A stretch of 62,070 bases of DNA from a virus (Duplodnaviria > Caudoviricetes). This document shows, in pieces, positions 3,033 through 40,599 of the stretch. The notes beneath the pieces were generated by a model. The model was not told the origin of the DNA and did no database searches. It worked only from the letters and a program-made list of their open reading frames with translations. The stretch covers positions 1-62,070 of IMG/VR virus record IMGVR_UViG_3300017742_000005; one strand, given 5' to 3'. Within the stretch, counting starts at the first letter, position 1. The number at the start of each line of letters is the position of its first letter. The translations under genes were made by a program, and so were the position numbers.

Positions 3033-3605
3033 ATGGATAACACATTCTACAAACAAATCGGAGAGTACAAAACATCAAAAGACCCAGTATTAGGTAACCT
3101 AAGATTGGTCGTTCACCTTGCTAAAAAATATCAAGGTATGGGATTATCATTAGAGGATCTAATCCATGAAGGTACAATCGGATTATGCCAAGCAAGGGAT
3201 AAATGGAACCCTGCAAAATCAAACGGTGCAAAATTCTCCACTCACGCTTCATGGTGGATCAAGGCAACAATTCGCCAGGCACTAAACAACAAAAGCCGTA
3301 CCATCAGAGTACCGGCTCATAAGACTCATCTTACCGAAGAAGCACCTAAGGTATCTGTATTAGATGCTACTTACCAAGGTTCTTATCAACCACATATTGA
3401 AGCCTCTCATAATGAATCACATCTGAATCATACTATTGCCGGTTTACTTACCAAACTAAAACCTAAGCAACAAGAAATTATCAAAATGAAATTCGGTATC
3501 GGTTGCCATGAAATGAAAACTTCTGAAATTGCCAAAGAACTTAATCTAACTGTCCAGGCAGTAAACGGAAATATTCGTAACGCTCTAAAACTGATGAAAG
3601 GATGA
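3033..3605 (+). CDS. Phage-encoded sigma-70 family RNA polymerase sigma factor
   Basis: Region 2 NLRLVVHLAKKY..GLSLEDLIHEGTIGL...KFSTHASWWIK..IRQAL; region 4 HTH TSEIAKELNLTVQAV. Confidence 0.9.
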   Translation: MDNTFYKQIGEYKTSKDPVLGNLRLVVHLAKKYQGMGLSLEDLIHEGTIGLCQARDKWNPAKSNGAKFSTHASWWIKATIRQALNNKSRTIRVPAHKTHLTEEAPKVSVLDATYQGSYQPHIEASHNESHLNHTIAGLLTKLKPKQQEIIKMKFGIGCHEMKTSEIAKELNLTVQAVNGNIRNALKLMKG

Positions 3606-4114: not shown

Positions 4115-4951
4115 ATGCCAGAATTAGCTGAACTTAGATTAACTGCCGACTATGTCAATAAAGCGGCAACAGGATTAAAATTTGTAAATATTAAAAAGAA
4201 CCCAGTTCATAAAGGTAAAGATGTTGAAGTACCTTTTAAATTCTTTAGAATATCGGCAGAGAGTAGAGGTAAGGAACTTATGCTTACTTTCTCAGATAAT
4301 AACTCTGCTGAAAAAATGTACCTTCTAATGACAATGGGAATGAGCGGTCATTTTGCCCATACAAATACTGGTCAAGAAAAGAAACATTCACATCTTATGT
4401 TTACTGAAAAGGATGGAACTACATTATCATTTGTAGATGTACGAAGGTTTGGTAAATGGAAATGGGTAGATGATTGGTCGCCTAATAGAGGACCAGATCC
4501 TACAACTGAATATGATGCCTTTACTGATAATATTATTCATAACTTAGATAAAGCTGCATTCAATCACCCTATACACACAGTACTGATGAACCAGTCTTAC
4601 TTTAATGGTATAGGAAATTATTTAAGGGCAGAAATACTTTACCGATTACCTTGGATTAATCCTTTTGAGTCGGCAAGAGAAGTATTAAAAAGAGAGCCTG
4701 ATCTTTTTGTATTATGTAGAGACATTCCTCTCCAAGCATATAAGCTAGGCGGCGGCCAACTTAAGGATTGGGAAAATCCATTTAGCACAGACCCTGAACC
4801 ACTCAGACAGTTTATGAGATGCTATGGTAACCCACAAATGTCAAAAAGAAAGGATAAAAATGGTAGAATGTTTTGGTATGATTCAAAGTGGAATGAAGAT
4901 GCTCTATGGGATCATTATAGTGGACTCCCAAATCCTTCTGCTTACTTGTAA
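4115..4951 (+). CDS. Fpg/Nei DNA glycosylase, NEIL1-like
   Basis: N-terminal MPE, RGKEL, GMSG, FVDVRRFG, H2TH FNGIGNYLRAEILY, zincless finger GRMFWY. Confidence 0.92.
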   Translation: MPELAELRLTADYVNKAATGLKFVNIKKNPVHKGKDVEVPFKFFRISAESRGKELMLTFSDNNSAEKMYLLMTMGMSGHFAHTNTGQEKKHSHLMFTEKDGTTLSFVDVRRFGKWKWVDDWSPNRGPDPTTEYDAFTDNIIHNLDKAAFNHPIHTVLMNQSYFNGIGNYLRAEILYRLPWINPFESAREVLKREPDLFVLCRDIPLQAYKLGGGQLKDWENPFSTDPEPLRQFMRCYGNPQMSKRKDKNGRMFWYDSKWNEDALWDHYSGLPNPSAYL

Positions 4952-4994: not shown

Positions 4995-5489
4995 ATGGCA
5001 AACATTGATAACAAATGTAAAGATTTGGATGTAAGAGACTACTTTACAGAAAACGGCTATGATCATTCTAAGAATTCTTTAGAAGATCTTTATTCATTAC
5101 AAAACGAAACACAATCTATGTATTTTGAAAAACAAGGAAAGAAACCTTTTTCAGAATATAACATAGGTGATGTAGTAGATTTTCTAATGGTTACTAATCA
5201 TGCAATCATTGATGAATTACATGAGATGATGGATGCAGTCGGTGGAATCGAAGACGGCGAAGGTAATGCTGCATGGAAACCTTGGAAGTCTACAAACCCT
5301 GAAGTTAGAAATAAAAAATTATCTGATTTAACCCCAGGTGATTTAAAAGAACTTAAAATGGAATGGATAGATGTAATGCATTTCGTATTTAATGCTGGGT
5401 TAGCAATAGGTGTTACCCCTAAGGAGTTTTATAATTTTTACTTAAGTAAGAATGAAGAAAACTGGAATAGACAAAAAAATAATTATTAA
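4995..5489 (+). CDS. Dimeric all-alpha dUTPase / T4 gp56-like dCTPase-dUTPase
   Basis: DELHE...WKPWK...EWIDVMHF...KNEENWNRQ motifs. Confidence 0.85.
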   Translation: MANIDNKCKDLDVRDYFTENGYDHSKNSLEDLYSLQNETQSMYFEKQGKKPFSEYNIGDVVDFLMVTNHAIIDELHEMMDAVGGIEDGEGNAAWKPWKSTNPEVRNKKLSDLTPGDLKELKMEWIDVMHFVFNAGLAIGVTPKEFYNFYLSKNEENWNRQKNNY

Positions 5490-5492
5490 CAT

Positions 5493-6095
5493 ATGTTTTT
5501 AAAAAATACTCATTATCATCAAATTGCAAAAATTTATGGGCGAGAATGTATTCACCCATCATATTTAAACTTAGATAAATTTTTGTGGGGAGACACAGGA
5601 AACGTTTGGCAATTATCATTACTTGTAACTTTAGCAAAAGATAACGATGTATTTGAAATCGGCACTTATCGTGGAAGAACAACAGATCAATTAGCAAAAG
5701 TAGCAAAAAGAGTAGTTACTTTAGATTGGGATAGTACACCAACTGAAGATGTACCAGATAATGGGTATTCAAATTATACTGTAGGTGAAATTTATAAAAA
5801 GAATAATAGAACTAATGTAACCCAATTAATTGGAGATAGCAGAACTATAAACTTAAGTAAATATTATAACCAATTTAATGTTGTATACTTAGACGGTGGT
5901 CATACAAAAGAAATGGCATACAATGATTTCTATTTAGCATTAAACCTTTTAAAAGATGGCGGTATAATTATTATAGATGATTCACAATGGGAAGGTGTTT
6001 ATCAGGCTATTCATAAATTACGAGATGAAGGATTTGAAATTCCTACAGTACATTATATTAACTATTACATTAAACGAAATAAACCATGCTTTTAG
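5493..6095 (+). CDS. Class I SAM-dependent methyltransferase (Methyltransf_24-like)
   Basis: FEIGTYRGRT, GDS, YLDGGH, GGIIIIDD. Confidence 0.85.
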   Translation: MFLKNTHYHQIAKIYGRECIHPSYLNLDKFLWGDTGNVWQLSLLVTLAKDNDVFEIGTYRGRTTDQLAKVAKRVVTLDWDSTPTEDVPDNGYSNYTVGEIYKKNNRTNVTQLIGDSRTINLSKYYNQFNVVYLDGGHTKEMAYNDFYLALNLLKDGGIIIIDDSQWEGVYQAIHKLRDEGFEIPTVHYINYYIKRNKPCF

Positions 6096-7501
6096 ACATT
6101 ACACAAGAAGACCGCCAATTATGGGTATCATACTTTAACCTTGATGGTAAAACTAGATTTAAAACTTATGATCTTAAACCAGAAGATATGTTTAACTGGG
6201 AGGTTTGCGATGAAGGTGATACTAAAGCAGATTCTAAAATGAAAAACTGGGATGGTCGTCCTGTTAAAAAAGTAAAATCTAGATGGCTTAACAAATATAG
6301 AATAATTGAATATATGGATCAATTATCTTTTTCTGATAGGGAATTAATTTTTGGTTATCACTTTCCAAGAACTTATTTTGTAGATATTGAGGTTGAGGTA
6401 ACCGATTCATTCCCTGAGCCAAGTAAAGCAGCAAACCCAGTTACTACAATTTGTATTGTTACTCCAGAGAAACAATGTATTGTTTTAGCAACTAAAGATT
6501 TAGACAATCAAACTCAAACCAAAATACAAAAACAAATTGATGAACATTTTAAAGATATAGATGATGATTTTTCTTTTACCTTTAAATGTTTTAAATCTGA
6601 GTATGATATGATGTCAACCTTTATGATGTCATTTGTTCAGAAATTCCCAATGATGACAGGGTGGAATTATATTAAATTTGATTGGCAGTACATTATAAAC
6701 CGTTGCAAAAAATTAGGTATTGATATTGGCTCTGCTTCGCCAATAGGTAGGAACTTTGGTAGAGATGAATTTCCATGCCATGTAGGTGTAATGGATTATT
6801 TAGATATTTATGCCAAGTGGGATAGAACTGTTGATATTAAGGAAGACTTTAAATTAGATACTGTAGGTGAAGCTGTCGTAGGAATTAAGAAAGTTAAATA
6901 TGAAGGCACTATTCAAGATATGTACGAAAAGGATTATCCAAAATATGTTTTCTATAACGTAATTGATACTGCATTAGTTTATCTTATTCATCAAAAGATT
7001 AAGACAATGGACATTGCATTAACAATTGCTCATATGACTCAGATTAGTATTTTTAAAGCTGCATCGCCAGTAGCAATTACCGAAGCCCTGTTGGCAAGAG
7101 AATTTTTAACAAGGAATCTTGTAATGGCAAAAGATCCGAAAGCCCCTCCATCTAAACGAGAACAATTTGAAGGTGCCTTTGTAAAAGAACCTATAACAGG
7201 TATGCATAATGCTGTTGCTGCATTTGACTTTGCTTCTCTATATCCTTCTATAATGAGACAGATGAATGTTTCCCCAGAAAGCTTTAAGAAGAAGGTTGCT
7301 CCAGAAAAAAGAAAAGAAGAGGAAGGTGATAACAACATAGTATCAGTTACAGGTGCAGTGTATGATACTGAAAGATCAATATTAAAAGATGTATTAACTA
7401 GGTTATATTCACAAAGAAAAGAATATAAAACAGAATCTTTTAGATTGCAGCAAAAAGCATATGATTTAGAACAAGAATTAAAAAAGGACTTAAATAAATA
7501 A
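6086..7501 (+). CDS. gp43A: Family B DNA polymerase, N-terminal half (exonuclease and palm motif A)
   Basis: ExoI VDIEV, ExoII GWNYIKFD, ExoIII YNVID, motif A FDFASLYPSI; ends in the fingers helix and lacks KxxxNSxYG and DTDS. Confidence 0.92.
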   Translation: MLLDITQEDRQLWVSYFNLDGKTRFKTYDLKPEDMFNWEVCDEGDTKADSKMKNWDGRPVKKVKSRWLNKYRIIEYMDQLSFSDRELIFGYHFPRTYFVDIEVEVTDSFPEPSKAANPVTTICIVTPEKQCIVLATKDLDNQTQTKIQKQIDEHFKDIDDDFSFTFKCFKSEYDMMSTFMMSFVQKFPMMTGWNYIKFDWQYIINRCKKLGIDIGSASPIGRNFGRDEFPCHVGVMDYLDIYAKWDRTVDIKEDFKLDTVGEAVVGIKKVKYEGTIQDMYEKDYPKYVFYNVIDTALVYLIHQKIKTMDIALTIAHMTQISIFKAASPVAITEALLAREFLTRNLVMAKDPKAPPSKREQFEGAFVKEPITGMHNAVAAFDFASLYPSIMRQMNVSPESFKKKVAPEKRKEEEGDNNIVSVTGAVYDTERSILKDVLTRLYSQRKEYKTESFRLQQKAYDLEQELKKDLNK

Positions 7502-8582: not shown

Positions 8583-10358
8583 ATGACAGCAGATCAAATA
8601 GAAAAAGAATTAGGTTGGGAACGTGGTGTTGATTATCCAGAATGGGGTCATACTGATGTTTACTTAAATACAATATCCAGAGGTTATTGTTTACCAGGAG
8701 AAACACCAAAAGATGCATATTGGAGAGTAGCAACAACAGTTGCAAATAGACTTAAGAAACCAGAAATGGCAGATAAGTTTATGAAGTACATTTGGAGGGG
8801 ATGGCTAAATCTAGCCTCACCTGTATTAAGTAACACTGGAACTGAAAGAGGTTTACCTATAAGCTGTTTCGGTATAGATGTAGCGGATTCAATAAACGAT
8901 ATAGGGCAAAAGAACCTAGAGTTAATGTTATTAGCTAAGCATGGTGGAGGAGTAGGAATATGCCATAATCAGATTAGGCCTGCAGGAGCTGCCATAACTG
9001 ATAACGGTACAAGTGACGGTGTAGTACCTTTTATTAAAATTAATGATTCTACAATTCTTGCTACTAATCAAGGCGCGGTAAGAAGAGGTGCCGCTAGTAC
9101 AAACTTAAGTATTGATCATGATGATTTTTGGGAATGGCTAGAAATCAGAGAACCTAAAGGTGATATTAATAGACAATGTTTAAATACTAATCAATGTGTT
9201 GTTATTTCTGATAAGTTTATGAGAAATGTTTTAGAAGGTGATTCTGAATCTAGAAAAAGATATGCGGCTGTACAAAGAAAAAGAAGACAGACAGGTCAAC
9301 CTTACATAATGTATAGAGGAAATGTTAATAAGCAAAACCCTGATGCATATAAGAGAAATGGACTGAAGGTTTTTATGACCAACATTTGTTCTGAAATTGT
9401 TTTACATACAGATGAAAATCACTCTTTCGTATGTTGTTTAAGTTCTCTTAATCTTTCTAAATATGATGAATGGAAAAACACTAATCTTATTTATGATGCT
9501 ACTTGGTTTCTTGATGGTGTACTTGAAGAATTTATCCAAAAGGCTAAATACAGAAAAGGTTTTGAAAATTCTGTAAGAACCGCTGAAAAGGGTAGGGCTG
9601 TAGGTTTAGGTGTATTAGGATGGCATACTTATTTACAGCAAAGAGGAATCGCATTTGAAGGTTTAGAGGCACAGTATGAAACTCGTAATATATTTTCTCA
9701 AATTAAAATAGAAAGTGAAAAGGCGAGCCGGGATCTTGCTGAAGAATACGGAGAACCTTTATGGTGCAGAGATACCGGTTTTAGGAATACTCACCTGAGA
9801 GCCGTAGCACCAACGGTTTCTAATTCTAAATTAGCGGGTGGTATATCTGCAGGAATTGAACCTGTACCTGCAAACATTTGGACTGATCAATCTGCTAAAG
9901 GAACATTTATTAGAAAGAACAGGCAATTAGAAGGTTATCTTGATAAAATTGGTCATGATAATAAAAAGGTATGGGATAAAATTATGGCTGACGGTGGATC
10001 TGTACAAGGATTAAAATTCTTAGATGATTGGTGTTTCTTAAAAGGCATCCTAATGAAATGTAAAGATGTTCCACAATACCAAGAAGGTGTTCCATTTAAA
10101 GATGTGTTTAAAACATTTAAAGAAATCAATCAATTAGAATTAGTAAAGCAAGCAGGCGTTAGACAACAATACGTAGATCAAGCAGTATCTTTAAATCTTG
10201 CCTTTCCTAAAGAAGCTACACCAAAATGGATTAACCAAGTTCATTTAGAAGCATGGAAGCAAGGAATTAAAACTTTATATTATATGAGAACTGAATCTGT
10301 ATTGAGAGGTGACATTGCTCAAAAGGCAATGGAAGACTGTATTAGCTGTGACGGATAA
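8583..10358 (+). CDS. nrdA: Ribonucleotide reductase class I alpha subunit, no ATP cone
   Basis: ISCF, TNICSEI, VCCLSS, APTVSNS, KTLYY, C-terminal CISC; likely start ATG 8583. Confidence 0.95.
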   Translation: MTADQIEKELGWERGVDYPEWGHTDVYLNTISRGYCLPGETPKDAYWRVATTVANRLKKPEMADKFMKYIWRGWLNLASPVLSNTGTERGLPISCFGIDVADSINDIGQKNLELMLLAKHGGGVGICHNQIRPAGAAITDNGTSDGVVPFIKINDSTILATNQGAVRRGAASTNLSIDHDDFWEWLEIREPKGDINRQCLNTNQCVVISDKFMRNVLEGDSESRKRYAAVQRKRRQTGQPYIMYRGNVNKQNPDAYKRNGLKVFMTNICSEIVLHTDENHSFVCCLSSLNLSKYDEWKNTNLIYDATWFLDGVLEEFIQKAKYRKGFENSVRTAEKGRAVGLGVLGWHTYLQQRGIAFEGLEAQYETRNIFSQIKIESEKASRDLAEEYGEPLWCRDTGFRNTHLRAVAPTVSNSKLAGGISAGIEPVPANIWTDQSAKGTFIRKNRQLEGYLDKIGHDNKKVWDKIMADGGSVQGLKFLDDWCFLKGILMKCKDVPQYQEGVPFKDVFKTFKEINQLELVKQAGVRQQYVDQAVSLNLAFPKEATPKWINQVHLEAWKQGIKTLYYMRTESVLRGDIAQKAMEDCISCDG

Positions 10359-10368
10359 AAAATAAATT

Positions 10369-11115
10369 ATGAAAGACTATACTTATATACTTGGTCCTTG
10401 TAGTATTGAAAACGAGGAAAACTTCTTAACTGTAGCAAAAGCTTTGGATGCTTGGATGGGAAATAAAAATTGGTACTTAAAAGGTTCTTTTGATAAAGCA
10501 AACAGAACTTCTATACATTCTGATAGAGGTCCTGGATTAGAAGAAGGGATGGAAATTATGAGAACGGTTAAGCACCATTATCCTAACATTAAAATTATAA
10601 CAGATATTCATGAACCTAGTCAGGCACTACCGCTATCTGAAGTAGTAGATGTTATTCAAATACCTGCATTCTTATGTAGACAAACTGATCTTTTAGTTGA
10701 ATGCGCTAAAAACTTTAATGTTATTAATATTAAGAAAGGTCAATGGTTATCAGCTGAGGCAATGGAACATGCAGTTACTAAGATAAAAGAAGTAGATCCT
10801 AATTGTGAAGTATGGGTAACTGAAAGAGGGTCTAACTTTGGTTATGACAGACTTATTGTAGATTTTAGAGGGGTTGATGTAATGAAACAATTTGCAGATA
10901 AAGTTATTTTAGATTGTACTCATTCAACACAAATGGCTGGGGATGGTATAACTGGAGGAAGTCGCAAATTAGCTAAGCAGTATTCACAAGCTGCAAAGAT
11001 ATTTGAATACGATGGAGCTTTTATTGAAACTCACCCAGATCCAGACAATGCAATATCAGATGCAGGAAGTCAAGTAGAATTAGATTGGTTAATTTCCAAT
11101 TTAGATAACATATGA
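10369..11115 (+). CDS. kdsA: KDO 8-phosphate synthase
   Basis: GPCSIE, KGSFDKANRTS, QIPAFLCRQTDL, KKGQW, ERG, DCTHS. Confidence 0.93.
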   Translation: MKDYTYILGPCSIENEENFLTVAKALDAWMGNKNWYLKGSFDKANRTSIHSDRGPGLEEGMEIMRTVKHHYPNIKIITDIHEPSQALPLSEVVDVIQIPAFLCRQTDLLVECAKNFNVINIKKGQWLSAEAMEHAVTKIKEVDPNCEVWVTERGSNFGYDRLIVDFRGVDVMKQFADKVILDCTHSTQMAGDGITGGSRKLAKQYSQAAKIFEYDGAFIETHPDPDNAISDAGSQVELDWLISNLDNI

Positions 11116-13134: not shown

Positions 13135-13311
13135 ATGGAAAAATTTGAAGAAATCAAAGCTCTTATTGAATCAGTAAGTGAAGATGTAGATAAATTCTAC
13201 GTAAAAGGAAACAAGGCTGCTGCCGTAAGAATTAGAAAATCAATGCAAGAAGTTAAAAATCTTGCACAAGAGCTAAGATTACATGTCCAAGAGACAAAGA
13301 ACAATATGTAA
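13135..13311 (+). CDS. 58-aa histone H1-like (Hc1 family) protein (not in ORF track)
   Basis: MEKFEEIKALIESVSEDVDKFYVKGNKAAAVRIRKSMQEVKNLAQELR; KGNKAAxxRxRK signature; AATATATA at 13103 and a downstream terminator. Confidence 0.8.
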   Translation: MEKFEEIKALIESVSEDVDKFYVKGNKAAAVRIRKSMQEVKNLAQELRLHVQETKNNM

Positions 13312-13330
13312 TTTTACATACCCTTCATTA

Positions 13331-13364
13331 AAAAGGACTATCTTTAACTAGGTAGTCCTTTTTT
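13331..13364 (+). terminator. Intrinsic terminator
   Basis: aaaaggactatct-ttaact-aggtagtcctttttt. Confidence 0.8.
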
Positions 13365-13388
13365 AGTTTTTATTGTCCTATTTACTTG

Positions 13389-13414
13389 AAACTATTTTAT
13401 AATCCTCTATATAA
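13389..13414 (+). promoter_or_regulatory. Bipartite promoter AAAC-N16-ATATAA heading the modification operon
   Basis: Conserved motif 20 nt upstream of the HAD start codon. Confidence 0.65.
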
Positions 13415-13434
13415 TAATAAATCAAACAGATTAT

Positions 13435-13986
13435 ATGGAAAAATGTTTAATATTAGATTTTGATGATACATTAGTTTCTACTATAGAAACTCATGCTGAT
13501 TCGTGGCGGCGTGCATTAGAAAGAGTCTTAAACAGAGATATACCGTTAAGTACTATAATGGCGGATATTAATTATGGTATGGATGTCCTTTTAAAGAAAT
13601 ACCAATTAAGTGAAGATGAATCCAAATTGGCACAAGATTATAAAAGGGAAATATTTTCAAAGAATCTTTATAAAACTAAAATTAATCAATTACTCTTATG
13701 GGTAATAAAAAATCATAAATTTGAAAAAATTATTATAGCATCAAATTCATCTAGAGAAAATGTAGATAGAATTATGTCGTATCATAATATCAGCCCTAAT
13801 TTGTTTGATATGATTGTAACAAGAGATGATGTAGTAAATAAAAAGCCACATTCTGATATGGCAGATTTAATTTTTAAAACATTTACTGAATATAAGCCTA
13901 AAGACTTTCTTATGGTTGGTGATTCAGAAGTAGATTCAACATTCGCACTTAAAAACAAAATGAAATGCATACTGGTAAAGTTTTAG
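13435..13986 (+). CDS. HAD-superfamily phosphatase
   Basis: LDFDDTL, ASNS, KKPH, VGDSEVD. Confidence 0.9.
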   Translation: MEKCLILDFDDTLVSTIETHADSWRRALERVLNRDIPLSTIMADINYGMDVLLKKYQLSEDESKLAQDYKREIFSKNLYKTKINQLLLWVIKNHKFEKIIIASNSSRENVDRIMSYHNISPNLFDMIVTRDDVVNKKPHSDMADLIFKTFTEYKPKDFLMVGDSEVDSTFALKNKMKCILVKF

Positions 13987-14711
13987 TAGGAAATAGTGGA
14001 GATAAGGTATATCTCCAAGATAACAAAGTTATTAAAGAAGCAGGCGTTTATCCTATAAAGTTTAAACAACAAATGGATTGGTTACAAAATTGTACTCATC
14101 CTAATTTTATAAAGATTAATCCAATATCAGATACTTCTTTTGAAATGAAAAGGTATCCTACTTGGTATGATAAAATTTGCGAGCAGCCTTTAATTAAATC
14201 AATTGATCAATTAGATAATCTTATTCATATAATAAACGACTTTGATGGATATGGTGCTGATGTAGATGTAAGATCTTATTTGGATAAATTAGAAGGAAGA
14301 ACCGGTTATCAGTATGATGGCGAATTAAATGCATCTTCTGGGTGGGGATTTGTACATGGTGATTTAACAGTAAGTAATATTTTATATGATAATGATTTTA
14401 TCTTTATTGACCCAAGAGGTACTGAAGAACAGAATTATTATGACTATGGAAAACTGATGCAATCCTTTGTAATGAAATATGAGGCCCATATATACAATGA
14501 AAGGAATTCTAAATACCTTAAGTTCTGTAGAGAAGCAGAAAACATAATGTATGAATGGTATGATGAATATCAATTAAAATTCTTTTTAGCAGTCCACTTA
14601 TTAGGAGCAGTACCTTTCTTTGAATTAAATGAAAGATATGAATTGGCTGGAATGTTCCTTAAAAAAGGTCATGAATTATTTGACGAATTAGAAATTAAAT
14701 ATAGCAAATGA
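13965..14711 (+). CDS. Aminoglycoside/choline kinase-like phosphotransferase
   Basis: HGDLTVSNI, FIDPRG, YDYGKL. Confidence 0.85.
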   Translation: MHTGKVLVGNSGDKVYLQDNKVIKEAGVYPIKFKQQMDWLQNCTHPNFIKINPISDTSFEMKRYPTWYDKICEQPLIKSIDQLDNLIHIINDFDGYGADVDVRSYLDKLEGRTGYQYDGELNASSGWGFVHGDLTVSNILYDNDFIFIDPRGTEEQNYYDYGKLMQSFVMKYEAHIYNERNSKYLKFCREAENIMYEWYDEYQLKFFLAVHLLGAVPFFELNERYELAGMFLKKGHELFDELEIKYSK

Positions 14712-15415
14712 GCAGAGTAAGAAAAGCAATTATCTTAGCAGCCGGAAGGTCTACTAGGTATGGATCAAATAAACTTATAGATCCAATTTTAGGAAAATCA
14801 ACAATTCAGTACTGTATTGAATTTTGTATTGAAAATGGAATAGAAGATGCATATGTTACTATAAGCAAATCTGACTTCTTTTTTAAAGGAAGGAATACTA
14901 AATTATCTCATCCTATTATTGAAAGTTTATCTAAGTATAAAGAAAAGATAAACATTTATTATGAATTTCAAAAGGATGATGAATATGGACCAGGTGCTGC
15001 AATTAAAGCATGGGAAGGTAAATTTTATGAACCTTTCTTATGTCTCTTTGGTGATAATTATTATCAAGGTAATATTGGTTTAGAATATCATGATCCAAAC
15101 AATACTGTAGTTACTTATAAGGATTATGAAACTAGAGCAAGGAATTTACAACTTGCTACTATCTTAGAAGATGTGGTTATTGAAAAACCTCATGGTGTAG
15201 TAAACGGAAGATACTTCTGTGGATATATGATATTTGGTAAAGAAGCATTTGATAACTTAAGCAGTATTAAATTATCAAATAGAAATGAATACGAAATTAC
15301 TCATCTTATAAACTCGATGGATAATTTAAAATTTGAAGAATTAAATATATGTTGGTATGACCTAACATATGAACAAGATAAACAAGTAATAGAAGACATT
15401 ATTCAAAATTGTTAA
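14708..15415 (+). CDS. Sugar-phosphate nucleotidyltransferase (RmlA-like)
   Basis: AIILAAGRSTR, LFGDN, IEKP, SNRNEYEIT. Confidence 0.9.
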   Translation: MSRVRKAIILAAGRSTRYGSNKLIDPILGKSTIQYCIEFCIENGIEDAYVTISKSDFFFKGRNTKLSHPIIESLSKYKEKINIYYEFQKDDEYGPGAAIKAWEGKFYEPFLCLFGDNYYQGNIGLEYHDPNNTVVTYKDYETRARNLQLATILEDVVIEKPHGVVNGRYFCGYMIFGKEAFDNLSSIKLSNRNEYEITHLINSMDNLKFEELNICWYDLTYEQDKQVIEDIIQNC

Positions 15416-15416
15416 T

Positions 15417-16682
15417 ATGAAAGAGAATGTAAAAAAGATTGGCTTTTTTAAATTAGGTAAAGCCATAAAGTTTAACGAAAACAGTTGGAGTGCAATCGGT
15501 GGTGATTGTGAACCTAAGCAATTAATTTGCTCAATTGCAAACCGAAACCCTAATATTGAATATTGGTTATTAAGCCCAAATGATTTAGGTAAGTTTAGAG
15601 CAAAACAAAAACCTAAAGTAGCTTCATTATTTGGACCTCCACCTACTGATGATCCAGTAGTTCCTAATAATATTAAGGAGTTTCATTCAACTATGAAAGA
15701 GAGAAAGTCTACGGATGAAACTGTTGAAATTATTCAAGGTTTAGATTTAGATTTTATTTTCTTTTATACTGGTCCAACAAGTACCGTTAATATTCCAGAA
15801 TATATTAATAAGAAAGATGGTACTGGTCAAGTTAAATCATTAGACTTCTTTAAGTATTATGCAGCTCCTATTATTAAATCGATGAATGAGTTGGAAAAGA
15901 AAGTTCCTATTGTAGGTTTACTTGTTGATAACCGATACGTTCTTGCATGTAAGGATTGGGGAATTAATAATAGACCAACTTATTACTTGGCACAAAATAC
16001 CTTTACTAAAGAAGAACAATATTTCTGCAACCCACCATTAAGAGATGTTAAGACTATTACATCAACCTATGAATATTCCGGTATTGAAACAGTATTCTTA
16101 TTAGATAAGAAAAGATATAATACTGATGAATTATTTAAAATGAAGAAGACTGATTCATTTATGATGCTACAGAATCAAGGTAAAGGATCAGGTGGAATGG
16201 ACCGATGGAATCCAGTAAAAGAGTACATTGTAGATCAAAATATTGAAACTGATATTTATGGAAAATGGGACGATGAGATTAAGGAAAAATATCCTAAATG
16301 GTTTAAAGGTGAAACTAGGATTGAAACAATGACTGATGAACTACTTGGTACCAAATATACATTCTGTGTTCCTATTAAAGAAGGTATGGTCACTTCTAAA
16401 TATGCGGAAATGTTGCATTATGGTATAATACCTTTCTTACACCCATCTTACGATACTGACTTTAATGTGTTTCCTGAAGGTCACTTCATTAGATGTAAAT
16501 CACCAGAAGATCTTAAAAAGAAAATTGAATTCTTAAATGCAAACCCAGAGCATTATAAGAAATTATTTTACAATCTCCAAGAAAAGTATCTTAAAGATTC
16601 TTATTATACCGGAGAGCATGTAGATAACAAAATCTGGGAAGCTTATGAACTTGTAACAAAAACTGAAACAATAAATGTATAA
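15417..16682 (+). CDS. GT-B fold glycosyltransferase, T4 beta-glucosyltransferase-like (candidate DNA glycosyltransferase)
   Basis: C-terminal DIYGKW...MVTSKYAEMLHYGIIPFLHPSYDT...SPEDLKKKIEFL parallels my recollection of the BGT C-domain (ITLRVWETM...FDT...ELIDRVNEL). Confidence 0.65.
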   Translation: MKENVKKIGFFKLGKAIKFNENSWSAIGGDCEPKQLICSIANRNPNIEYWLLSPNDLGKFRAKQKPKVASLFGPPPTDDPVVPNNIKEFHSTMKERKSTDETVEIIQGLDLDFIFFYTGPTSTVNIPEYINKKDGTGQVKSLDFFKYYAAPIIKSMNELEKKVPIVGLLVDNRYVLACKDWGINNRPTYYLAQNTFTKEEQYFCNPPLRDVKTITSTYEYSGIETVFLLDKKRYNTDELFKMKKTDSFMMLQNQGKGSGGMDRWNPVKEYIVDQNIETDIYGKWDDEIKEKYPKWFKGETRIETMTDELLGTKYTFCVPIKEGMVTSKYAEMLHYGIIPFLHPSYDTDFNVFPEGHFIRCKSPEDLKKKIEFLNANPEHYKKLFYNLQEKYLKDSYYTGEHVDNKIWEAYELVTKTETINV

Positions 16683-17697
16683 TTCCGAAACAAAAATCCT
16701 AGTCACCGGTGGTGCTGGGTTCGTTGGTACAAATTTTATTAACGATTTATTAAATAGAGGTCATAACCCTAAATGTATTGCCGTTATTGACAATATGGAA
16801 CACGGTACTTATATACCAAAGGTACATGACCAAATAGAAAATTTTCATAAAGTAGATATTAGAAATCAATATGTAGAAAACATTATTCAAGAATTTGCTC
16901 CTGATTATGTTTATCACTTTGCAGGTTTAGTTTCTATTTATGACTGTCATGAAGATCCGTATGAAGCTGTTGATAATAATATTCTAGGTAGTATTAATGT
17001 AATGAATGGCTGTGTAAAGGCTAATGTAAAAAGAATCATTTTTAGCGAAACTTCTGCTGTGTATGAAAACTGTGAAATGCCAGAAGCTGGGTTTAATGAA
17101 ACGCAATCAGATCCTACTACAATTTATTCTACAACAAAAGCATGCTTGGCATTATTAGCAGAATCATATCAGAGAACCAAAGGATTAAATTATACTGCAT
17201 TAAGATACTTTAATGTTGCTGGGCCACTACAGGATTATAATAGAACTATACCTCCAGTGTTTGCCGGATTTATTTTAAGAATTAAAGGTAATCATAACCC
17301 TATTGTGTTTGGGGATTATATGAAGGCGAGAGATTATATTGATGTATCTGATGTTAATGCATTTCATATTCTTTGTATGGAAAATGAAGACACTGCAAAC
17401 CAAACTTTTAATTTAGGAACTGGAAAAATGACAAATTTAATGGATCTTAAAAATATGATTGGGGAAATCATGGAAGTAGGTGAAGTACCTTTTGATCATT
17501 ATGATCCAATTGCAGGTGAAGCTCTAAATATCAGAGGAGATATTTCTAAAGCTAAATCAATGGGATGGGAACCTAAAAAAGATATTAGAGATACTATTAA
17601 AGAAACTATTGTTTACTTAGAAGAAGAGATTAAACAAGGTACAATTGATCCTCTAACATTTATGGAAGATTTAGAAATTGAAAAAGTAAAAATATAA
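16675..17697 (+). CDS. NAD-dependent nucleotide-sugar epimerase/dehydratase
   Basis: TGGAGFVG, YSTTK, LRYFNVAG, RDYIDVSD. Confidence 0.92.
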   Translation: MYNSETKILVTGGAGFVGTNFINDLLNRGHNPKCIAVIDNMEHGTYIPKVHDQIENFHKVDIRNQYVENIIQEFAPDYVYHFAGLVSIYDCHEDPYEAVDNNILGSINVMNGCVKANVKRIIFSETSAVYENCEMPEAGFNETQSDPTTIYSTTKACLALLAESYQRTKGLNYTALRYFNVAGPLQDYNRTIPPVFAGFILRIKGNHNPIVFGDYMKARDYIDVSDVNAFHILCMENEDTANQTFNLGTGKMTNLMDLKNMIGEIMEVGEVPFDHYDPIAGEALNIRGDISKAKSMGWEPKKDIRDTIKETIVYLEEEIKQGTIDPLTFMEDLEIEKVKI

Positions 17698-17699
17698 AT

Positions 17700-18962
17700 A
17701 TGGAAAAAGAGTTAAAATGGGGTACTATAATTCCACTTATTGGAGGTAGTGCAATAGGATGTAAAAAATCTGCAGGTAATGAGCCGGCATTTCATTTAAG
17801 TTATGATGCATTTGCCGCTAATGAAAGTCATATTGAAAAGTATTGGCCAGAAGTACCTATGTATAGATTAGACCACGAAGACTTAGATATACCTAAACAA
17901 ACTTTTAATGAAGTTGACTATGTAAATTCAGTATGTCCTTGTGCAGGTTTATCACAATTAAATTCTGCAAAAGGTAGTGCAGCATCTCGAGGATCTGGTG
18001 CAACACAGAATCAATGGATGTATAATTCATCAGAGTATATTTTAGAAAATGTAAAGCCTAAAGTTCTTTGGGGTGAAAACGCGCCTGGTCTTTTTACTAA
18101 GATGGGGGAAGGTGTAGTTGATAGGCTAAAGGCTATTGGTGAAAAATACGGATATAGTTTTTCTTTAATTAAAACTAATACTGAATTGCATGGAATTCCA
18201 CAAAGAAGAATGAGAACATTTTATTTCTTTTGGAATACACCAACCGTCCCTATGCTAAGCTGGAAGTTTAGAGAAAAGAAAAATCTTATTGATTATCTTA
18301 ATGAAATACCAGAAGATGCTACACACCAAGATATGTTTATGGTAGAAGGTAAAGTTACAGATCATTTTAAACCTTATGAATATGTTTTAGAAAAAGAAGG
18401 TTTAACACATTCTGAATTCGCTGCTAAATTTAAAAAAGGTACTATTGCTCAATATTTAGAGAAAAATGAATTAATACCTGACTGTATTAAGTGGTTAGAG
18501 AAGCATTATCCAAAAAGAGGGTTTTCAAATAAAAAATCTACCAAGACTTTTATTGATATGTTAGAACATCAGCAATATAAAACAAGTCAAGGGTTAGGTT
18601 ATTGGGATGCCTCACCACACTTCTTCCATGATTCATTCTCTGCTCTTATTGGTAGAAATATGTTTAATGGTGTTCATCCTATAGAAAATAGATATCTTAA
18701 TGTAAGAGAGATGTTACATTTAATGGGCTTACCATTAGACTTCGGTATTGAAAATGCAAAGCAAGTAAATCACATTGCTCAAAATGTACCAGTAACTACT
18801 GCAATGGATATGGCCGATGAAGTAAAGAAATTTTGTAATGGAGAAGCTAAAATGACTAATTATACTTTTCTTAAACAAGATAATACAAACCATAAAATAA
18901 TTGACTCTGTTGAAATCGGAGCAGAACCTAAAAAGAAGTATAAAGTAAAAAGTATAATTTAA
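17700..18962 (+). CDS. Cytosine-C5 DNA methyltransferase homolog with non-canonical motif I
   Basis: Catalytic PC (CPCAGLS), motif VI ENA, motif VIII PQRRMR, motif X QNVP; motif I reads IPLIGG instead of FxGxGG. Confidence 0.85.
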   Translation: MEKELKWGTIIPLIGGSAIGCKKSAGNEPAFHLSYDAFAANESHIEKYWPEVPMYRLDHEDLDIPKQTFNEVDYVNSVCPCAGLSQLNSAKGSAASRGSGATQNQWMYNSSEYILENVKPKVLWGENAPGLFTKMGEGVVDRLKAIGEKYGYSFSLIKTNTELHGIPQRRMRTFYFFWNTPTVPMLSWKFREKKNLIDYLNEIPEDATHQDMFMVEGKVTDHFKPYEYVLEKEGLTHSEFAAKFKKGTIAQYLEKNELIPDCIKWLEKHYPKRGFSNKKSTKTFIDMLEHQQYKTSQGLGYWDASPHFFHDSFSALIGRNMFNGVHPIENRYLNVREMLHLMGLPLDFGIENAKQVNHIAQNVPVTTAMDMADEVKKFCNGEAKMTNYTFLKQDNTNHKIIDSVEIGAEPKKKYKVKSII

Positions 18963-18964
18963 TT

Positions 18965-19981
18965 ATGAAAGATAAGGCATTAGCAATAGGCGTTTCAAGC
19001 CTAGAGTTTACTAACATCTTATGTAGTTATTATCCTAGAGGAATTAAAGAAGAATTTGACATTTACCTGTTTGTGGATGATACCAAAATAGATTTAGATA
19101 AACTGCAAGGAATTTTTAATGAACATGATTTAGATATTTTTAAGAAGGCAAAAGTTATTATTTTAAATGACCTTTATGACTATTATATAGAAAAGCATGG
19201 CTATGAAGGTAAGTCAAAGGAATTTTTATTAAGTCATGGGTGTCTATTTAAAATCTTAATGCCTATTTATCTAAAGGAAAAATTTGGAGTTAAAAGAACT
19301 TTAGTATCAGATGATGATGTATTTATTTTAAATGACATTAGTTATATGTGGGATGAATATGAAGAGTTCGGTATTAAAAAGGAAAATTTATTTTACATTA
19401 GGAATAAAGATAAGTATGATGTAATGAATGCATTTAATGAAATCTTTGAAACTGATTTTACATTAGAGCAAATGAATGCCCTTTCAATCAATGCCGGTAA
19501 TATCATATACGGTGAGGATCCTAAATTAGAATATTACTTTGAAAGATTTATGAAGCATCCTTTCATTCACCACCAATATTTTAATTTTACAGGATATACG
19601 AGTTGGACAGTAGAACAGAGATTCCATCATTTTAATATTCATAGGTATTTAGCCGAAGGTAGAAAGGTTAAATTTACTGAGAGCAAAGACTTAAGGTTAA
19701 TGCAAAATAGAGATAAGATGATGAAAGCCGGTACACCACCTGATAAGTATCTTAAAGTAGTTGTACCATCTATTATTCATTATGCTATAGGTACAAAAAA
19801 ACCATTATGGTTAAATGATTTTTTACCAGGATTAGAATGGAGATACGGTTTTACATATGAAGCTAAATATGAGCTTAAAGATATCTTATACAATAAAAAT
19901 TGGCAACCACCATCATTTAAAAGTGTACAAAAAAATGGCTTTAATTTAAATAAAGATTTAAAAACAAATTCAGTATTTTAG
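18965..19981 (+). CDS. Putative GT-A fold glycosyltransferase
   Basis: SDDDVF DxD motif, INAG, EQ, IIHY pattern as in GT8-like enzymes. Confidence 0.6.
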   Translation: MKDKALAIGVSSLEFTNILCSYYPRGIKEEFDIYLFVDDTKIDLDKLQGIFNEHDLDIFKKAKVIILNDLYDYYIEKHGYEGKSKEFLLSHGCLFKILMPIYLKEKFGVKRTLVSDDDVFILNDISYMWDEYEEFGIKKENLFYIRNKDKYDVMNAFNEIFETDFTLEQMNALSINAGNIIYGEDPKLEYYFERFMKHPFIHHQYFNFTGYTSWTVEQRFHHFNIHRYLAEGRKVKFTESKDLRLMQNRDKMMKAGTPPDKYLKVVVPSIIHYAIGTKKPLWLNDFLPGLEWRYGFTYEAKYELKDILYNKNWQPPSFKSVQKNGFNLNKDLKTNSVF

Positions 19982-20032: not shown

Positions 20033-20782
20033 ATGGAAACAAAAATCAACAAAATTGACGGTTATGAATTAAGTTCATTCGTTCGCAAATTACTTCCAAT
20101 TGACAAATTCATCTTTATGAAAATCGCTAAAGAAGGTACAGTGTCTTCTGTATATTTTCCTGAGAGAGATGCCGTAAAATTGGTTAATACTCCAACATCT
20201 GATATCTTTGATGCTGATATATCTGACCCTGTTAAAGTAAGCTTTTACAACGGTACTAAAGTAATAGATGCATTAAGTCATTTTAACGGAGATGTACAAG
20301 GTCGTATTAAGTATACTGAATATGATGGTGAATTAATGGCAAGTGATTTTATTTTAGAAAATGAAGATCTTCAAATTAATTTGGCATGTACTGATCCATC
20401 ATTATCATTTATGGAAATGAGTAAAGAAGAAACGGATAGAGCATTTGGTGTTGAATCTAAAATGTTTGATTTTGATTTACTTACAACGCACGTAGATAAA
20501 ATGAAATCATTATTTAATTTAGATAAAGATGAGGATATCTTTACTCTCTATATTGGAGAAAAAGGAATTAATATTAAAGGTACTTCTTATGATGCTACAT
20601 TATGTCACTCTTATGATTCAAATGTAGAAAAAGGTGCAAAGGTTGTAATTTACAAAAAGTATATCAATCTTTTAGATAAAGAAAATTACAAAGTAAGTGT
20701 ATGTGAAAATAAAGTGGTGTTTAAATCTCTTGATACTAATACGCACTTAACTGTTGCTGTTGCTATAACAGACGAAGATTAA
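20033..20782 (+). CDS. gp45: Putative sliding clamp
   Basis: 249 aa, acidic, beta-rich; C-terminal YKVSVC..KVVFKS...VAV pattern; replication context. Confidence 0.6.
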   Translation: METKINKIDGYELSSFVRKLLPIDKFIFMKIAKEGTVSSVYFPERDAVKLVNTPTSDIFDADISDPVKVSFYNGTKVIDALSHFNGDVQGRIKYTEYDGELMASDFILENEDLQINLACTDPSLSFMEMSKEETDRAFGVESKMFDFDLLTTHVDKMKSLFNLDKDEDIFTLYIGEKGINIKGTSYDATLCHSYDSNVEKGAKVVIYKKYINLLDKENYKVSVCENKVVFKSLDTNTHLTVAVAITDED

Positions 20783-20790
20783 TTTCTTAT

Positions 20791-21735
20791 ATGCTGACTG
20801 GAAAAATTGACATTGTATTACAAGGTCCTTATAATGATTATGTTGATGAGGTTGCCTTATATTACTTATCATTAAGCTTTGTCAATAACATAATTATTTC
20901 TCATCATACTACAGATACTAAAGAGAGATTAATTCATGACCAGATAAAATATATCACTACCGATAAAATTAAACCTATCGGTAGTGGTAATGAAAATTTA
21001 CAAATCATATCTTCTTTGGCTGGTATAAAGGCTGCAACTACAACTTTTGTTGTAAAAATGAGGAATGACCAAAAGTATACTTTGGATTCTATGAAGGCTA
21101 TGTATGACTTTTATAATCAAAACTCTGATAAAGAAGTTTCTTTTTTAGATGATTCATCTAAGCCATGTAATAGAATCTGTGTAGCTGGTAATTTTTCTCA
21201 TTTACCATTTCATCCTAGAGATCATATTTTTTGGGGTAATAAAAATGACTTAATTGATTTATTCAGTTTACCTTTAGATGAATATGATATCTATCAAAGA
21301 CTAGATAATCGTGATGATGATATAGTTGATGTTATTAATAAGAAAGGTGTTGATTGGATTTTAACTGATCCTATACATTCACCTTCCGAAATGGTAAAAA
21401 AGCACAACATCTCATGGATATTCTATGAGCACCCACCAGAAGAAAATTATAGTATGCCTTTAATAAGAACTGAGGCAAGAATAGCTTTAAATTATATAGC
21501 TAAATTTGATCCAAGAGTAAAGTTGTTTTTATCTAATCCTAAGGAATATGTACATGATGGTGCACCTAATTATTATGAAGCGTTAAACGTGAGTACTAAT
21601 TTAACACCGAAGGTTTTTAAATCCTTTCCAAAAACCGGTATTGATTTATCATGCCCAAAAAATGGATGGACTAATTACCCATATGATCAACAATACAATC
21701 AATACGGAGAAAGATGGCATGAAGATAATGTTTAA
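20791..21735 (+). CDS. WavE-like LPS synthesis protein
   Basis: IVLQGP, NLQIISSLAGI, VKMRND, FHPRDHIFWG. Confidence 0.7.
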   Translation: MLTGKIDIVLQGPYNDYVDEVALYYLSLSFVNNIIISHHTTDTKERLIHDQIKYITTDKIKPIGSGNENLQIISSLAGIKAATTTFVVKMRNDQKYTLDSMKAMYDFYNQNSDKEVSFLDDSSKPCNRICVAGNFSHLPFHPRDHIFWGNKNDLIDLFSLPLDEYDIYQRLDNRDDDIVDVINKKGVDWILTDPIHSPSEMVKKHNISWIFYEHPPEENYSMPLIRTEARIALNYIAKFDPRVKLFLSNPKEYVHDGAPNYYEALNVSTNLTPKVFKSFPKTGIDLSCPKNGWTNYPYDQQYNQYGERWHEDNV

Positions 21736-21768: not shown

Positions 21769-22887
21769 ATGACTGAGGAATTACAAAAAATTAACGAAGA
21801 AGCATCAAAGTTTTATAATTATGAACAGGCAGTTAAGTTAATGCTCAATTCAATTTACGGAGCATTTGGTAATCCTTATTTTTATTTCTTTAATGTTGAT
21901 ATTGCAGAAACTATTACTTTACAAGGTAAGGATGCAATTCTTTATACCGAAAATTTAGTTAACAAATATTTTAAGGAATATTGGCATAAAGATACTGCTG
22001 CTCATCAAGCCATGGGAATTACCGTTACCGGTAAAATTGAAAAGCCCGTAGGTATTTACATTGATACTGATTCTGTATATGTAAAGTTTGAGGAATTAAT
22101 TAAAAAATGCGAGGGATGGGAAGGCGATGAAAAGGAATTTATTTTAAAGTTATATGAAGTAAGACTTAAATCTTATATAGAAAAAATTCTACAAGTATAT
22201 GCTGATAATAATAATGCTGAAAACTTTTTATCTTTTGAATTAGAAAGTATAGCAAAAAATGCGATATGGCTCGCCAAGAAAAAGTATATGCAAAATATTG
22301 TTTGGAAAGATCCGGATATTCATTATGATGATCTTTCTAAAATTAGTTCTAAAGGTTTTGAAATCATACAGTCATCTACTCCAATTTTTGCTAGAGAAAA
22401 ACTTAAAGAATTGCTAACTTATATCTTTTCAGTTAGTGAATTAGATATGGGAGCTTTTGCTGCATTACTTAAGGATATAAAAAGACAATTTAGATTAGCC
22501 AACGTAGATCAAATATGTTTCTCAAGAAAGGTAAATAATTATCAGAAATATATTGTTAATGATTATGAGGCTTTTGAAATTGCATCAAAGTGTCCTATTG
22601 GTGTAAGGTCTGCAGGTTATCATAATTACCTTTTAAATAATTCTGGTCTTAAAGGAAAATATCAACCATTAGGAAATGGAGAAAAATGTAAAATGTATTT
22701 CTCCACTGATAATTCTTGCGATGTATTTGCATTTGCGCCAGGTGATTATCCTTACGAGTTTGCACCTAAGATAGATTATGATAGGCAATTCGAAAAAACA
22801 ATATTAGATCCAATAAATCGAGTAGTTACTGCAATGGGCTTTAAGTCTTTTAATAGAAATTTGATTTATACAACCAGCTTATTTTAA
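21769..22887 (+). CDS. gp43B: Family B DNA polymerase, C-terminal half
   Basis: Motif B KLMLNSIYGAFGN, motif C YIDTDS, KKKY, C-terminal clamp-binding-like TSLF. Confidence 0.92.
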   Translation: MTEELQKINEEASKFYNYEQAVKLMLNSIYGAFGNPYFYFFNVDIAETITLQGKDAILYTENLVNKYFKEYWHKDTAAHQAMGITVTGKIEKPVGIYIDTDSVYVKFEELIKKCEGWEGDEKEFILKLYEVRLKSYIEKILQVYADNNNAENFLSFELESIAKNAIWLAKKKYMQNIVWKDPDIHYDDLSKISSKGFEIIQSSTPIFAREKLKELLTYIFSVSELDMGAFAALLKDIKRQFRLANVDQICFSRKVNNYQKYIVNDYEAFEIASKCPIGVRSAGYHNYLLNNSGLKGKYQPLGNGEKCKMYFSTDNSCDVFAFAPGDYPYEFAPKIDYDRQFEKTILDPINRVVTAMGFKSFNRNLIYTTSLF

Positions 22888-38653: not shown

Positions 38654-38763
38654 TCATTTAATCTAAAAGATATTAATCGAATGGTTAAGAAGAAAAGAAC
38701 CGAGGCGATTAAATAAACGGAATTGAAAGATTCCACAAAAATGCGAAAAATAATTTTTTAAAA

Positions 38764-40500: not shown

Positions 40501-40525
40501 GAATAAAAACTTATAATACAGTTTT

Positions 40526-40557
40526 AAAAGGTTCGCTTAACGGCGGACCTTTTTTTT
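40526..40557 (+). terminator. Intrinsic terminator after the capsid gene
   Basis: aaaaggttcgct-taac-ggcggacctttttttt. Confidence 0.85.
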
Positions 40558-40599
40558 GTCTTATATTAGTTGAATATATAAAAAAATCAATAACTAGAT

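Follow-up and report, generated by a model that had tools for sequence, protein, structure and literature searches.

We analysed a 62,070-nt stretch of DNA from a tailed virus (Caudoviricetes; IMG/VR record IMGVR_UViG_3300017742_000005), hereafter the window, which is a viral contig fragment estimated to be 24% complete, with a GC content of ~31% and all genes on the + strand. Seven of these genes (13435–19981) form a compact operon whose role in DNA sugar hypermodification is well supported. It probably serves as the sugar arm of a cytosine hypermodification system of the pre-replicative, T-even type, and most likely the phage makes an activated sugar itself and, in the manner of T4, couples it to the hydroxymethylated cytosines of its DNA. 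What is new is that a self-made donor sugar, as in arabinosyl-cytosine phages, would be joined to a T-even-like pathway of the glucosyl-hydroxymethylcytosine type, together with a conserved C5-cytosine DNA methyltransferase (MTase). The operon comprises the following genes:

13435..13986, + strand: HAD-superfamily phosphatase, HAD_2 / beta-phosphoglucomutase-like (Pfam HAD_2, 2.5e-22)
13965..14711, + strand: APH-fold sugar kinase (Pfam APH, 0.015, below the cut-off; core motifs; homologs)
14708..15415, + strand: sugar-1-phosphate nucleotidyltransferase (Pfam NTP_transf_3, 1.8e-6)
15417..16682, + strand: GT-B glycosyltransferase with a fold like that of T4 beta-glucosyltransferase (BGT) (fold matches of an AlphaFold2 model; genomic linkage)
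16675..17697, + strand: NAD-dependent short-chain dehydrogenase/reductase (SDR) resembling nucleoside-diphosphate-sugar (NDP-sugar) 4-epimerases (Pfam Epimerase, 3.4e-46; phrog_540, 7.5e-62)
17700..18962, + strand: C5-cytosine DNA MTase of a distinct phage clade (Pfam DNA_methylase, 1.2e-19)
18965..19981, + strand: GT-A glycosyltransferase, GT8-like, an accessory gene (model fold matches; invariant DD at 117–118)

All six junctions in the open reading frame (ORF) listing (−22, −4, +1, −8, +2 and +2 nt) agree with the seven abutting or overlapping genes, with gaps of 2 nt or less, given in a preliminary description made from the letters of the sequence. The functions it named were borne out by Pfam, motifs, homologs and the models of the GT-B and GT-A enzymes. 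Its proposal that the operon makes its own NDP-sugar for DNA glycosylation, possibly with a second sugar added by the GT-A enzyme, is likewise supported as a prediction of their chemistry.

The GT-B enzyme had been called BGT-like, and fold comparison upheld this. A model built from 85 sequences (pLDDT 93.7) had T4 BGT at ranks 1–6 among its PDB matches (E 2.8e-10 to 1e-7), with T4 alpha-glucosyltransferase (AGT) also present, and its second-best match among the BFVD viral models is named DNA beta-glucosyltransferase. The alignments to T4 BGT have 11–13% identity, and the family is large (383 clusters at 50% identity). Judged from the model and from its genomic linkage, the enzyme is probably a DNA 5-hydroxymethylcytosine (5hmC) glycosyltransferase. 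The GT-A enzyme had no Pfam match; its model (pLDDT 89) matches a GT8-type xyloside xylosyltransferase, LARGE1, glycogenin and LgtC, the DD pair is invariant, and it is predicted to transfer a second sugar.

The synteny anticipated for related phages was found in both close and distant relatives. Two scans of IMG/VR yielded 41 and 40 loci, and in every one of the 34 (of the 41 GT-B loci) that cover both flanks the six-gene core, HAD–kinase–transferase–GT-B–epimerase–MTase, is present in the same order. The GT-A gene is present in 26 of the 41 loci and absent from 15, in 14 of which the next gene starts 57–63 nt after the MTase. Extra genes within the relatives' operons encode an FkbM-type methyltransferase (2.4e-19), class I S-adenosylmethionine (SAM) methyltransferases (1e-13; one weak) and a GT2 enzyme; the operon is a hot spot for genes that would tailor the glycan. 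These inserts lie at 8642–9289 and 12290–12910 in L013, 12285–12950 in L010 and 14590–15387 in L007; homing endonucleases were considered for them and ruled out, the Pfam matches being to methyltransferases and GT2.

Four distant GT-B representatives used as single queries retrieved no IMG/VR loci, and a profile-guided scan with a four-sequence GT-B alignment retrieved 39. In the fetched flanks of these 39, the MTase clade was found at 30, a thymidylate-synthase homolog at 19, a transferase–kinase fusion at 16, a GT-A homolog at 4 and a homolog of the gene at 4995–5489 (see below) at 2. Grouped at 60% GT-B identity they form 16 lineages. The MTase occurs in 10 of these, the thymidylate-synthase homolog in 9 and the fusion in 7; several of the negative cases are fragments of 4 kb. 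Three sets of distant loci (L075, L080/L081 and L082) illustrate the arrangement: their MTase homologs (38–63% identity) each adjoin a GT-B homolog (27–31%), they also hold transferase–APH-kinase fusions, more glycosyltransferases, or a HAD–SIS fusion with a ribulose-phosphate epimerase, and each has a divergent thymidylate-synthase homolog. A different order is seen in L113–L118, where a thymidylate-synthase homolog is followed further on by epimerase, GT-B and MTase, with no kinase or transferase; the epimerase there is very close to that of the window (E 1e-90 to 1e-123), and the epimerase–GT-B–MTase trio may be a mobile core.

The linkage extends to cultured phages. Pseudoalteromonas phage vB_Psh_XG4 (hereafter XG4) has, in a row, a thymidylate-synthase homolog, a small HAD, the fusion, GT-B, a second glycosyltransferase, the MTase and a dCTPase-like gene, and Enterococcus phage 9183 has thymidylate kinase, a thymidylate-synthase homolog, dUTPase, HAD, the fusion and GT-B, without the MTase. 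In L075, L081, L082, XG4 and phage 9183, then, the neighbours of the GT-B gene include a divergent thymidylate-synthase homolog. Bacillus phage G encodes an MTase homolog, a transferase, a HAD, a kinase-like gene and a Pfam-level T4 AGT homolog, and in cyanophage S-TIM54 the MTase adjoins a "ThyA" with Asp177.

The base to be glycosylated would be supplied by an enzyme encoded elsewhere in the genome. As the preliminary description stated, neither a hydroxymethylase nor TET/JBP is apparent in the window, where a profile search found no thymidylate-synthase homolog. Its conclusion that the MTase primes the base without a hydroxymethylase was not supported: the window is a fragment, and a divergent, gp42-like thymidylate-synthase homolog (80–88 bits) is present in each of the six close-relative records long enough to include its position (G001 and G005–G009). 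Because relatives have it, we infer that this phage has one too. The search beyond the window that had been proposed, made here in relatives, succeeded for thymidylate-synthase homologs and failed for TET/JBP (PF12851), which was detected in none of nine records (seven incomplete, and the two complete genomes of XG4 and S-TIM54) at E up to 1. In G005, which is 98–99% identical to the window region, the GT-B gene is at 15660 and the homolog at 69445, 54 kb downstream, a position that corresponds to ~69 kb and so lies beyond the 62-kb window; in G001 the last large gene of the window maps to 38721–41855 and the homolog is at 49194. The hydroxymethylase gene is therefore expected ~6–7 kb past the window end. 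In G001, genes resembling guanylate kinase and thymidylate kinase lie next to the homolog, on its 5′ side.

Comparison with solved structures sets the divergent homolog nearest to the MilA CMP hydroxymethylase (2.3e-25) and T4 dCMP hydroxymethylase (4.6e-24), with true thymidylate synthases reaching no better than 2.8e-13. G001 and G009 carry a canonical thymidylate synthase as well (~290–300 bits). The gp42-like features are DFxCT, RSND and Asp at the position of ThyA-177. We aligned 29 non-canonical rows (11 divergent homologs and those 18 of the 19 from distant loci that have Asp at ThyA-177, some genes being counted twice). Asp occupies ThyA-177 and ThyA-169 in all 29 and position 143 in 28, S-TIM54 having Cys143; position 147 is Thr in 26, Asn in two and His in S-TIM54, whereas the four canonical rows have Leu143, His147 and Asn177. 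The set D143, C146, D169 and D177 occurs in the homologs of all six close-relative records and at 18 of the 39 distant loci. According to excerpts of the respective papers, a change of Asn177 to Asp switches specificity to dCMP (PMC8670742), and Asn at ThyA-169 is the mark of 5-hydroxy-dCMP synthases (PMC13326640). With Asp at both positions, the predicted product is therefore 5-hydroxymethyl-dCMP and not 5-hydroxy-dCMP.

A putative gene of the nucleotide branch of the pathway lies in the window, upstream of the operon:

4995..5489, + strand: all-alpha NTP pyrophosphatase-like protein, candidate dCTPase (dUTPase_2, 8e-4; PRA-PH, 0.003–0.08)

It gave nothing meaningful against the PDB, and the MazG family was found in none of five records. 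Phage XG4 has a homolog (36% identity) inside its module, as do L123 and L126 (3e-43), and on this sequence evidence the gene is a candidate dCTPase that may be a functional part of the pathway. Between it and the N-terminal half of the DNA polymerase is a class I SAM methyltransferase (5493–6095; Methyltransf_24, 9.5e-14, O-methyltransferase-like), possibly a sugar methylase.

From gene content, folds, homologies and linkage, the following scheme can be proposed, in which all of the chemistry, the nature of the sugar and the MTase target are predictions. The dCTPase-like enzyme, the gp42-like dCMP hydroxymethylase and the two nucleotide kinases, the last three presumably encoded just past the window end, would fill the dNTP pool with 5-hydroxymethyl-dCTP, which the split family-B polymerase would incorporate. 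In the sugar arm, the APH-like kinase would phosphorylate C1 of a sugar phosphate, the HAD phosphatase would take off the distal phosphate, the nucleotidyltransferase would make the NDP-sugar and the SDR would epimerise it. The BGT-like GT-B enzyme would then transfer the sugar to 5hmC in DNA, and the GT8-like GT-A enzyme would add a second sugar in the strains that carry it. Cytosines that escape replacement would be methylated by the C5-MTase.

The HAD enzyme probably removes the distal phosphate of a sugar bisphosphate, an AfhF/GmhB-like role; a KdsC-type assignment was considered and ruled out, no KdsC model having matched. Inspection of the kinase revealed VHGDLTVSN and FIDPRG, the HGDxxxxN/IDP core. 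It had no match among phages by tblastn, and it resembles the kinase halves of transferase–kinase fusions (L081, 1e-8; L075, 1e-4), S-CBWM1 gp12 (3e-7) and phage G gp311 (2.5e-7). In turn, the RB69 gp52 kinase is matched by the fused kinases (L075 and L081; 1.8e-11 and 9.5e-6), and BLAST found no direct match between the window proteins and the RB69 region. The nucleotidyltransferase is nearest to sugar-1-phosphate thymidylyl/uridylyltransferases (38% identity to S-CBWM1 gp11). UDP-glucose 4-epimerases are closest to the epimerase, the nearest solved structure being GalE (4zrm, 3.2e-40).

The substrate of the kinase may be arabinose-5-phosphate, because relatives encode a KdsD/KpsF-type SIS protein of the arabinose-5-phosphate isomerase type (G001, 4.4e-50; G009). 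No such isomerase was found within the window, and in G001 the gene adjoins KdsB (5.9e-65) and so possibly serves synthesis of 3-deoxy-D-manno-octulosonic acid (Kdo). The window itself has one gene of that route:

10369–11115, + strand: KdsA (2.2e-85)

With KdsD and KdsB (G001 67659–71057, L111), the lineage has a nearly full CMP-Kdo pathway, and the G001 region also adjoins a WecD-like acyltransferase and an aminotransferase fragment. Arabinose-5-phosphate would therefore be available in the lineage, either for Kdo or for an NDP-pentose.

The setting of the operon among replication genes is also informative. The family-B polymerase is indeed split, as the preliminary description had it, with halves at 6086–7501 and 21769–22887 and the operon between them. 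The two upstream features are:

13330..13363, + strand: terminator-like hairpin at the end of the Hc1-like gene (14 pairs, then a T run), which marks the 5′ border of the operon transcription unit
13385..13423, + strand: promoter-like element TTGAAA-18-TATAAT (13386–13415), then TATATAATAATAAATC (motif scan)

The region shows no excess of promoter-like sites (69 found against 86.8 ± 10.3 expected), and a single promoter for the operon therefore cannot be shown. The likeness of the upstream element to those of replication genes was confirmed. The ~70 nt 5′ of the operon and the ~70 nt 5′ of the gene at 4995 are 83% identical, and the core motif TATATAANAATAAATC (≤2 mismatches) occurs at nine sites against 2.6 expected. 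Six of the nine copies lie 4–14 nt ahead of start codons, including those of uvsX (24568) and the DnaB-like helicase gene (26082).

Three known systems were compared with this one. As in the T-even system (gp42, the gp56 dCTPase, the gp1 kinase and BGT/AGT), there is a BGT-like GT-B fold, a gp42-like homolog in relatives with nucleotide kinases beside it, and placement among replication genes. T-even phages use host UDP-glucose, whereas this phage would make its own NDP-sugar; an extra GT8-like transferase and a conserved C5-MTase are present, the hydroxymethylase lies ~45–54 kb from the glycosylation genes in this lineage, and the GT-B enzyme lacks Pfam-level membership of the BGT family.

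The arabinosyl-5-hydroxycytosine pathway of RB69, DLP3 and HY126 comprises, in excerpts of its description (PMC13326640), the AfhE transferase–kinase, the AfhF HAD phosphatase, an arabinose-5-phosphate isomerase and a thymidylate-synthase-like 5-hydroxy-dCMP synthase. Its logic of a kinase, a HAD phosphatase and a nucleotidyltransferase feeding DNA GT-B enzymes is shared. So are the kinase homology, through the fused forms, the pairing of an AfhE-type kinase with a nucleotidyltransferase, possibly the KdsD-type isomerase (in G001 and G009) and, for the RB69 cluster, a position beside DNA polymerase and clamp, the latter a candidate here. The differences are that kinase and transferase are separate genes here, that the HAD subfamily is another one, that the homologs have Asp and not the diagnostic Asn at ThyA-169, predicting 5hmC rather than 5-hydroxycytosine, and that the GT-B enzyme has no BLAST similarity to the RB69 region. 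The epimerase and the MTase are additions, the 4-epimerase step having no counterpart in the RB69 scheme.

Metavirome clusters of C5-MT, TET (5mYOX) and glycosyltransferase genes, as far as excerpts of PMC8256090 and bioRxiv 10.1101/2023.12.21.572611 describe them, likewise have a C5-MTase beside glycosyltransferases and an epimerase on marine viral contigs, and di-sugar products made by two transferases; unlike them, the phages here have a thymidylate-synthase-type hydroxymethylase in place of TET/JBP, which was detected in none of the nine records. To call the pathway undescribed, as was done at first, goes too far. A bulk catalogue of ThyS-associated GT-B clusters, whose neighbours include epimerase, APH, methyltransferase and clamp genes, is given in bioRxiv 10.1101/2023.12.21.572611, and PMC13326640 describes the kinase/transferase/phosphatase logic for arabinosyl-cytosine phages. 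Our literature search found no paper that combines dCMP hydroxymethylase, cytosine methyltransferase, glycosyltransferase and phage, although supplements may list contigs of the lineage, and none that mentions phage vB_Psh_XG4.

Several observations weigh against a T-even-type sugar arm. The window has no thymidylate-synthase homolog, the matches behind the dCTPase assignment of the gene at 4995–5489 are all sub-threshold, and the operon HAD belongs to a subfamily other than that of AfhF. The GT-B model has moderate TM-scores against T4 BGT (0.60–0.68, TMt); the sequence matches no Pfam family over the cut-off, with sub-threshold matches to Glyco_trans_1_2 and GT10, and no PHROG or NCBIfam entry, so that it falls outside the T4 BGT family at the sequence level. 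LPS- or capsule-type genes (KdsA, WbqC-GNAT, GT2 and WavE-like) flank the operon and could serve a non-DNA glycan. Finally, full replacement of cytosine by hydroxymethylcytosine (hmC) would leave no substrate for a C5-MTase, and the MTase is nonetheless kept with the GT-B gene in 10 of 16 distant lineages; an MTase that mops up unreplaced cytosines explains its tight linkage to GT-B in hydroxymethylase-bearing phages poorly.

The motifs of the MTase are PLIGG, CPCAGLS, ENAPG, QRRMR and QNVP, with the catalytic Cys and motifs VI, VIII and X of a C5-MTase, and the clade of this enzyme has 2107 proteins at E 1e-5 or better. Among 46 aligned members P12, L13, G15, G16, C81, E126–P129, R170, R172 and Q361–P364 are invariant. 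The enzyme keeps all catalytic motifs and is most simply read as an active plain methylase acting on unreplaced cytosines as a second layer of protection. Two positions depart from the canonical pattern: motif IV reads PCA or PCS rather than PCQ, and in motif X Gln replaces, without exception, the Asn found in the GNAVP sequence of M.HaeIII. These positions presumably line the pocket for the transferred (methyl) group in M.HhaI. C5-MTases are able to react with 5hmC in vitro. The clade might be a functional partner of the BGT-like transferase on hmC DNA, with a non-SAM cofactor or hmC substrate giving a new adduct, or with a programmed mosaic of 5-methylcytosine (5mC) and glycosyl-5hmC as the outcome, which we consider possible but unlikely. 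If it were so, pre- and post-replicative cytosine modification would routinely coexist in one genome, without TET.

It is similarly unlikely, by a slightly lower estimate, that the clade is not a plain methylase and that, working with the GT-B enzyme on hmC DNA or with a non-SAM cofactor, it yields a final base other than glycosyl-5hmC. In its favour are the tight MTase–GT-B linkage, which in many lineages goes with a dCMP hydroxymethylase and no TET, the variant motifs IV and X, and the fact that the window MTase alone (P0001) matches no solved MTase among PDB sequences at E 0.01 or better. The catalytic Cys, the Glu of ENxP, RxR and the PLxGG motif I are, however, invariant, as expected of an ordinary methylase, and the family profile matches M.HaeIII (2.2e-15), M.HhaI, DNMT1 and the DNA cytosine carboxymethyltransferase CmoX (8yf3, 1.4e-10). 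CmoX signatures, given in an excerpt of PMC12783734 as an SPPC motif and an Arg at the HhaI Asn304 position, are absent: motif IV is VCPC, and the motif-X residue, which by alignment would correspond to HhaI 304, is Gln. Some clade members (P0382, P0387, P0393, P0395, P0415 and others) are 600–713 aa long with an extra domain and are 53–58% identical to the window enzyme; one is from a eukaryote transcriptome collection.

We regard it as distinctly improbable that the glycan made by the operon goes to something other than DNA, such as virion proteins or the host envelope, with the MTase an unrelated anti-restriction gene travelling along. The flanking LPS- or capsule-type genes, the KdsD, KdsB, acyltransferase and aminotransferase-fragment genes of G001 and the many GT-B fold matches to LPS or bacillithiol enzymes speak for such a glycan. 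Among the flanking genes, WbqC-GNAT, GT2 and WavE-like genes vary between close relatives. Against a non-DNA target, the top fold matches of the GT-B enzyme are to a DNA enzyme, T4 BGT, the GT-B gene recurs in unrelated phages beside dCMP-hydroxymethylase-type homologs, nucleotide kinases, dCTPase-like genes and polymerases, and the operon has its upstream element in common with replication genes.

Least probable is a C5-MT/TET/GT-type route in which the MTase writes 5mC, an unrecognised or novel oxygenase oxidises this post-replicatively to 5hmC and both glycosyltransferases act on the product. In its favour, most lineages have the MTase and GT-B genes side by side, no thymidylate-synthase homolog was found in the window, and MT+TET+GT(+epimerase) clusters exist in marine viromes (excerpts of PMC8256090). 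Against it, TET/JBP was detected in none of the nine records, including the complete MTase-bearing genomes of XG4 and S-TIM54, every operon gene has another assignment, and the gp42-like hydroxymethylase is present in six of six close relatives and lies within the module in distant lineages.

A T-even-type system with a self-made sugar would matter beyond this contig. Marine metagenomes are rich in this phage group (191 protein clusters at 90% identity were retrieved with GT-B, on contigs of up to ~219 kb), and if its DNA carries a self-made cytosine glycan, this affects its sequencing, its restriction and its recognition by host defences. The gain and loss of sugar methyltransferase and glycosyltransferase genes between near-identical strains is the pattern expected of an arms race over DNA glycan structure. 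Coexistence of pre- and post-replicative routes is named as an open question in an excerpt of bioRxiv 10.1101/2023.12.21.572611, and it is directly touched by the recurrent combination, in the absence of TET, of a C5-MTase with a dCMP hydroxymethylase and a BGT-like enzyme. Phage XG4 offers a cultured system for the pathway.

At the nucleotide level the operon matched none of 50,697 phage records. The polymerase halves are an exonuclease/N-terminal and a C-terminal part, 14 kb apart, with ribonucleotide reductase, sugar genes, the operon and a clamp candidate in between; in the distant relative L075 the polymerase is unsplit (840 aa). The clamp candidate (20033–20782) is a weak lead, and the stretch from the operon to the C-terminal half holds the WavE-like gene as well. 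A perfect TTGACA-17-TATAAT (20807–20835) falls just within the annotated start of this WavE-like ORF, whose true start may be later than annotated, and a hairpin with a 13-bp stem lies within it on the opposite strand (20955–20986). Directly 5′ of the operon is a gene for a 58-aa Hc1 protein (chlamydial histone H1-like; 13135–13311; Pfam 2.6e-23) with its own terminator, so that the gene for a DNA-compacting Hc1-like protein adjoins those for DNA modification. Further upstream are genes for a sigma-70 family factor (regions 2 and 4; 3033–3605) and an Fpg/Nei-type DNA glycosylase (4115–4951), and the first ORF (3–1019), open at its 5′ end, encodes collagen triple-helix repeats (Pfam 2.1e-22).

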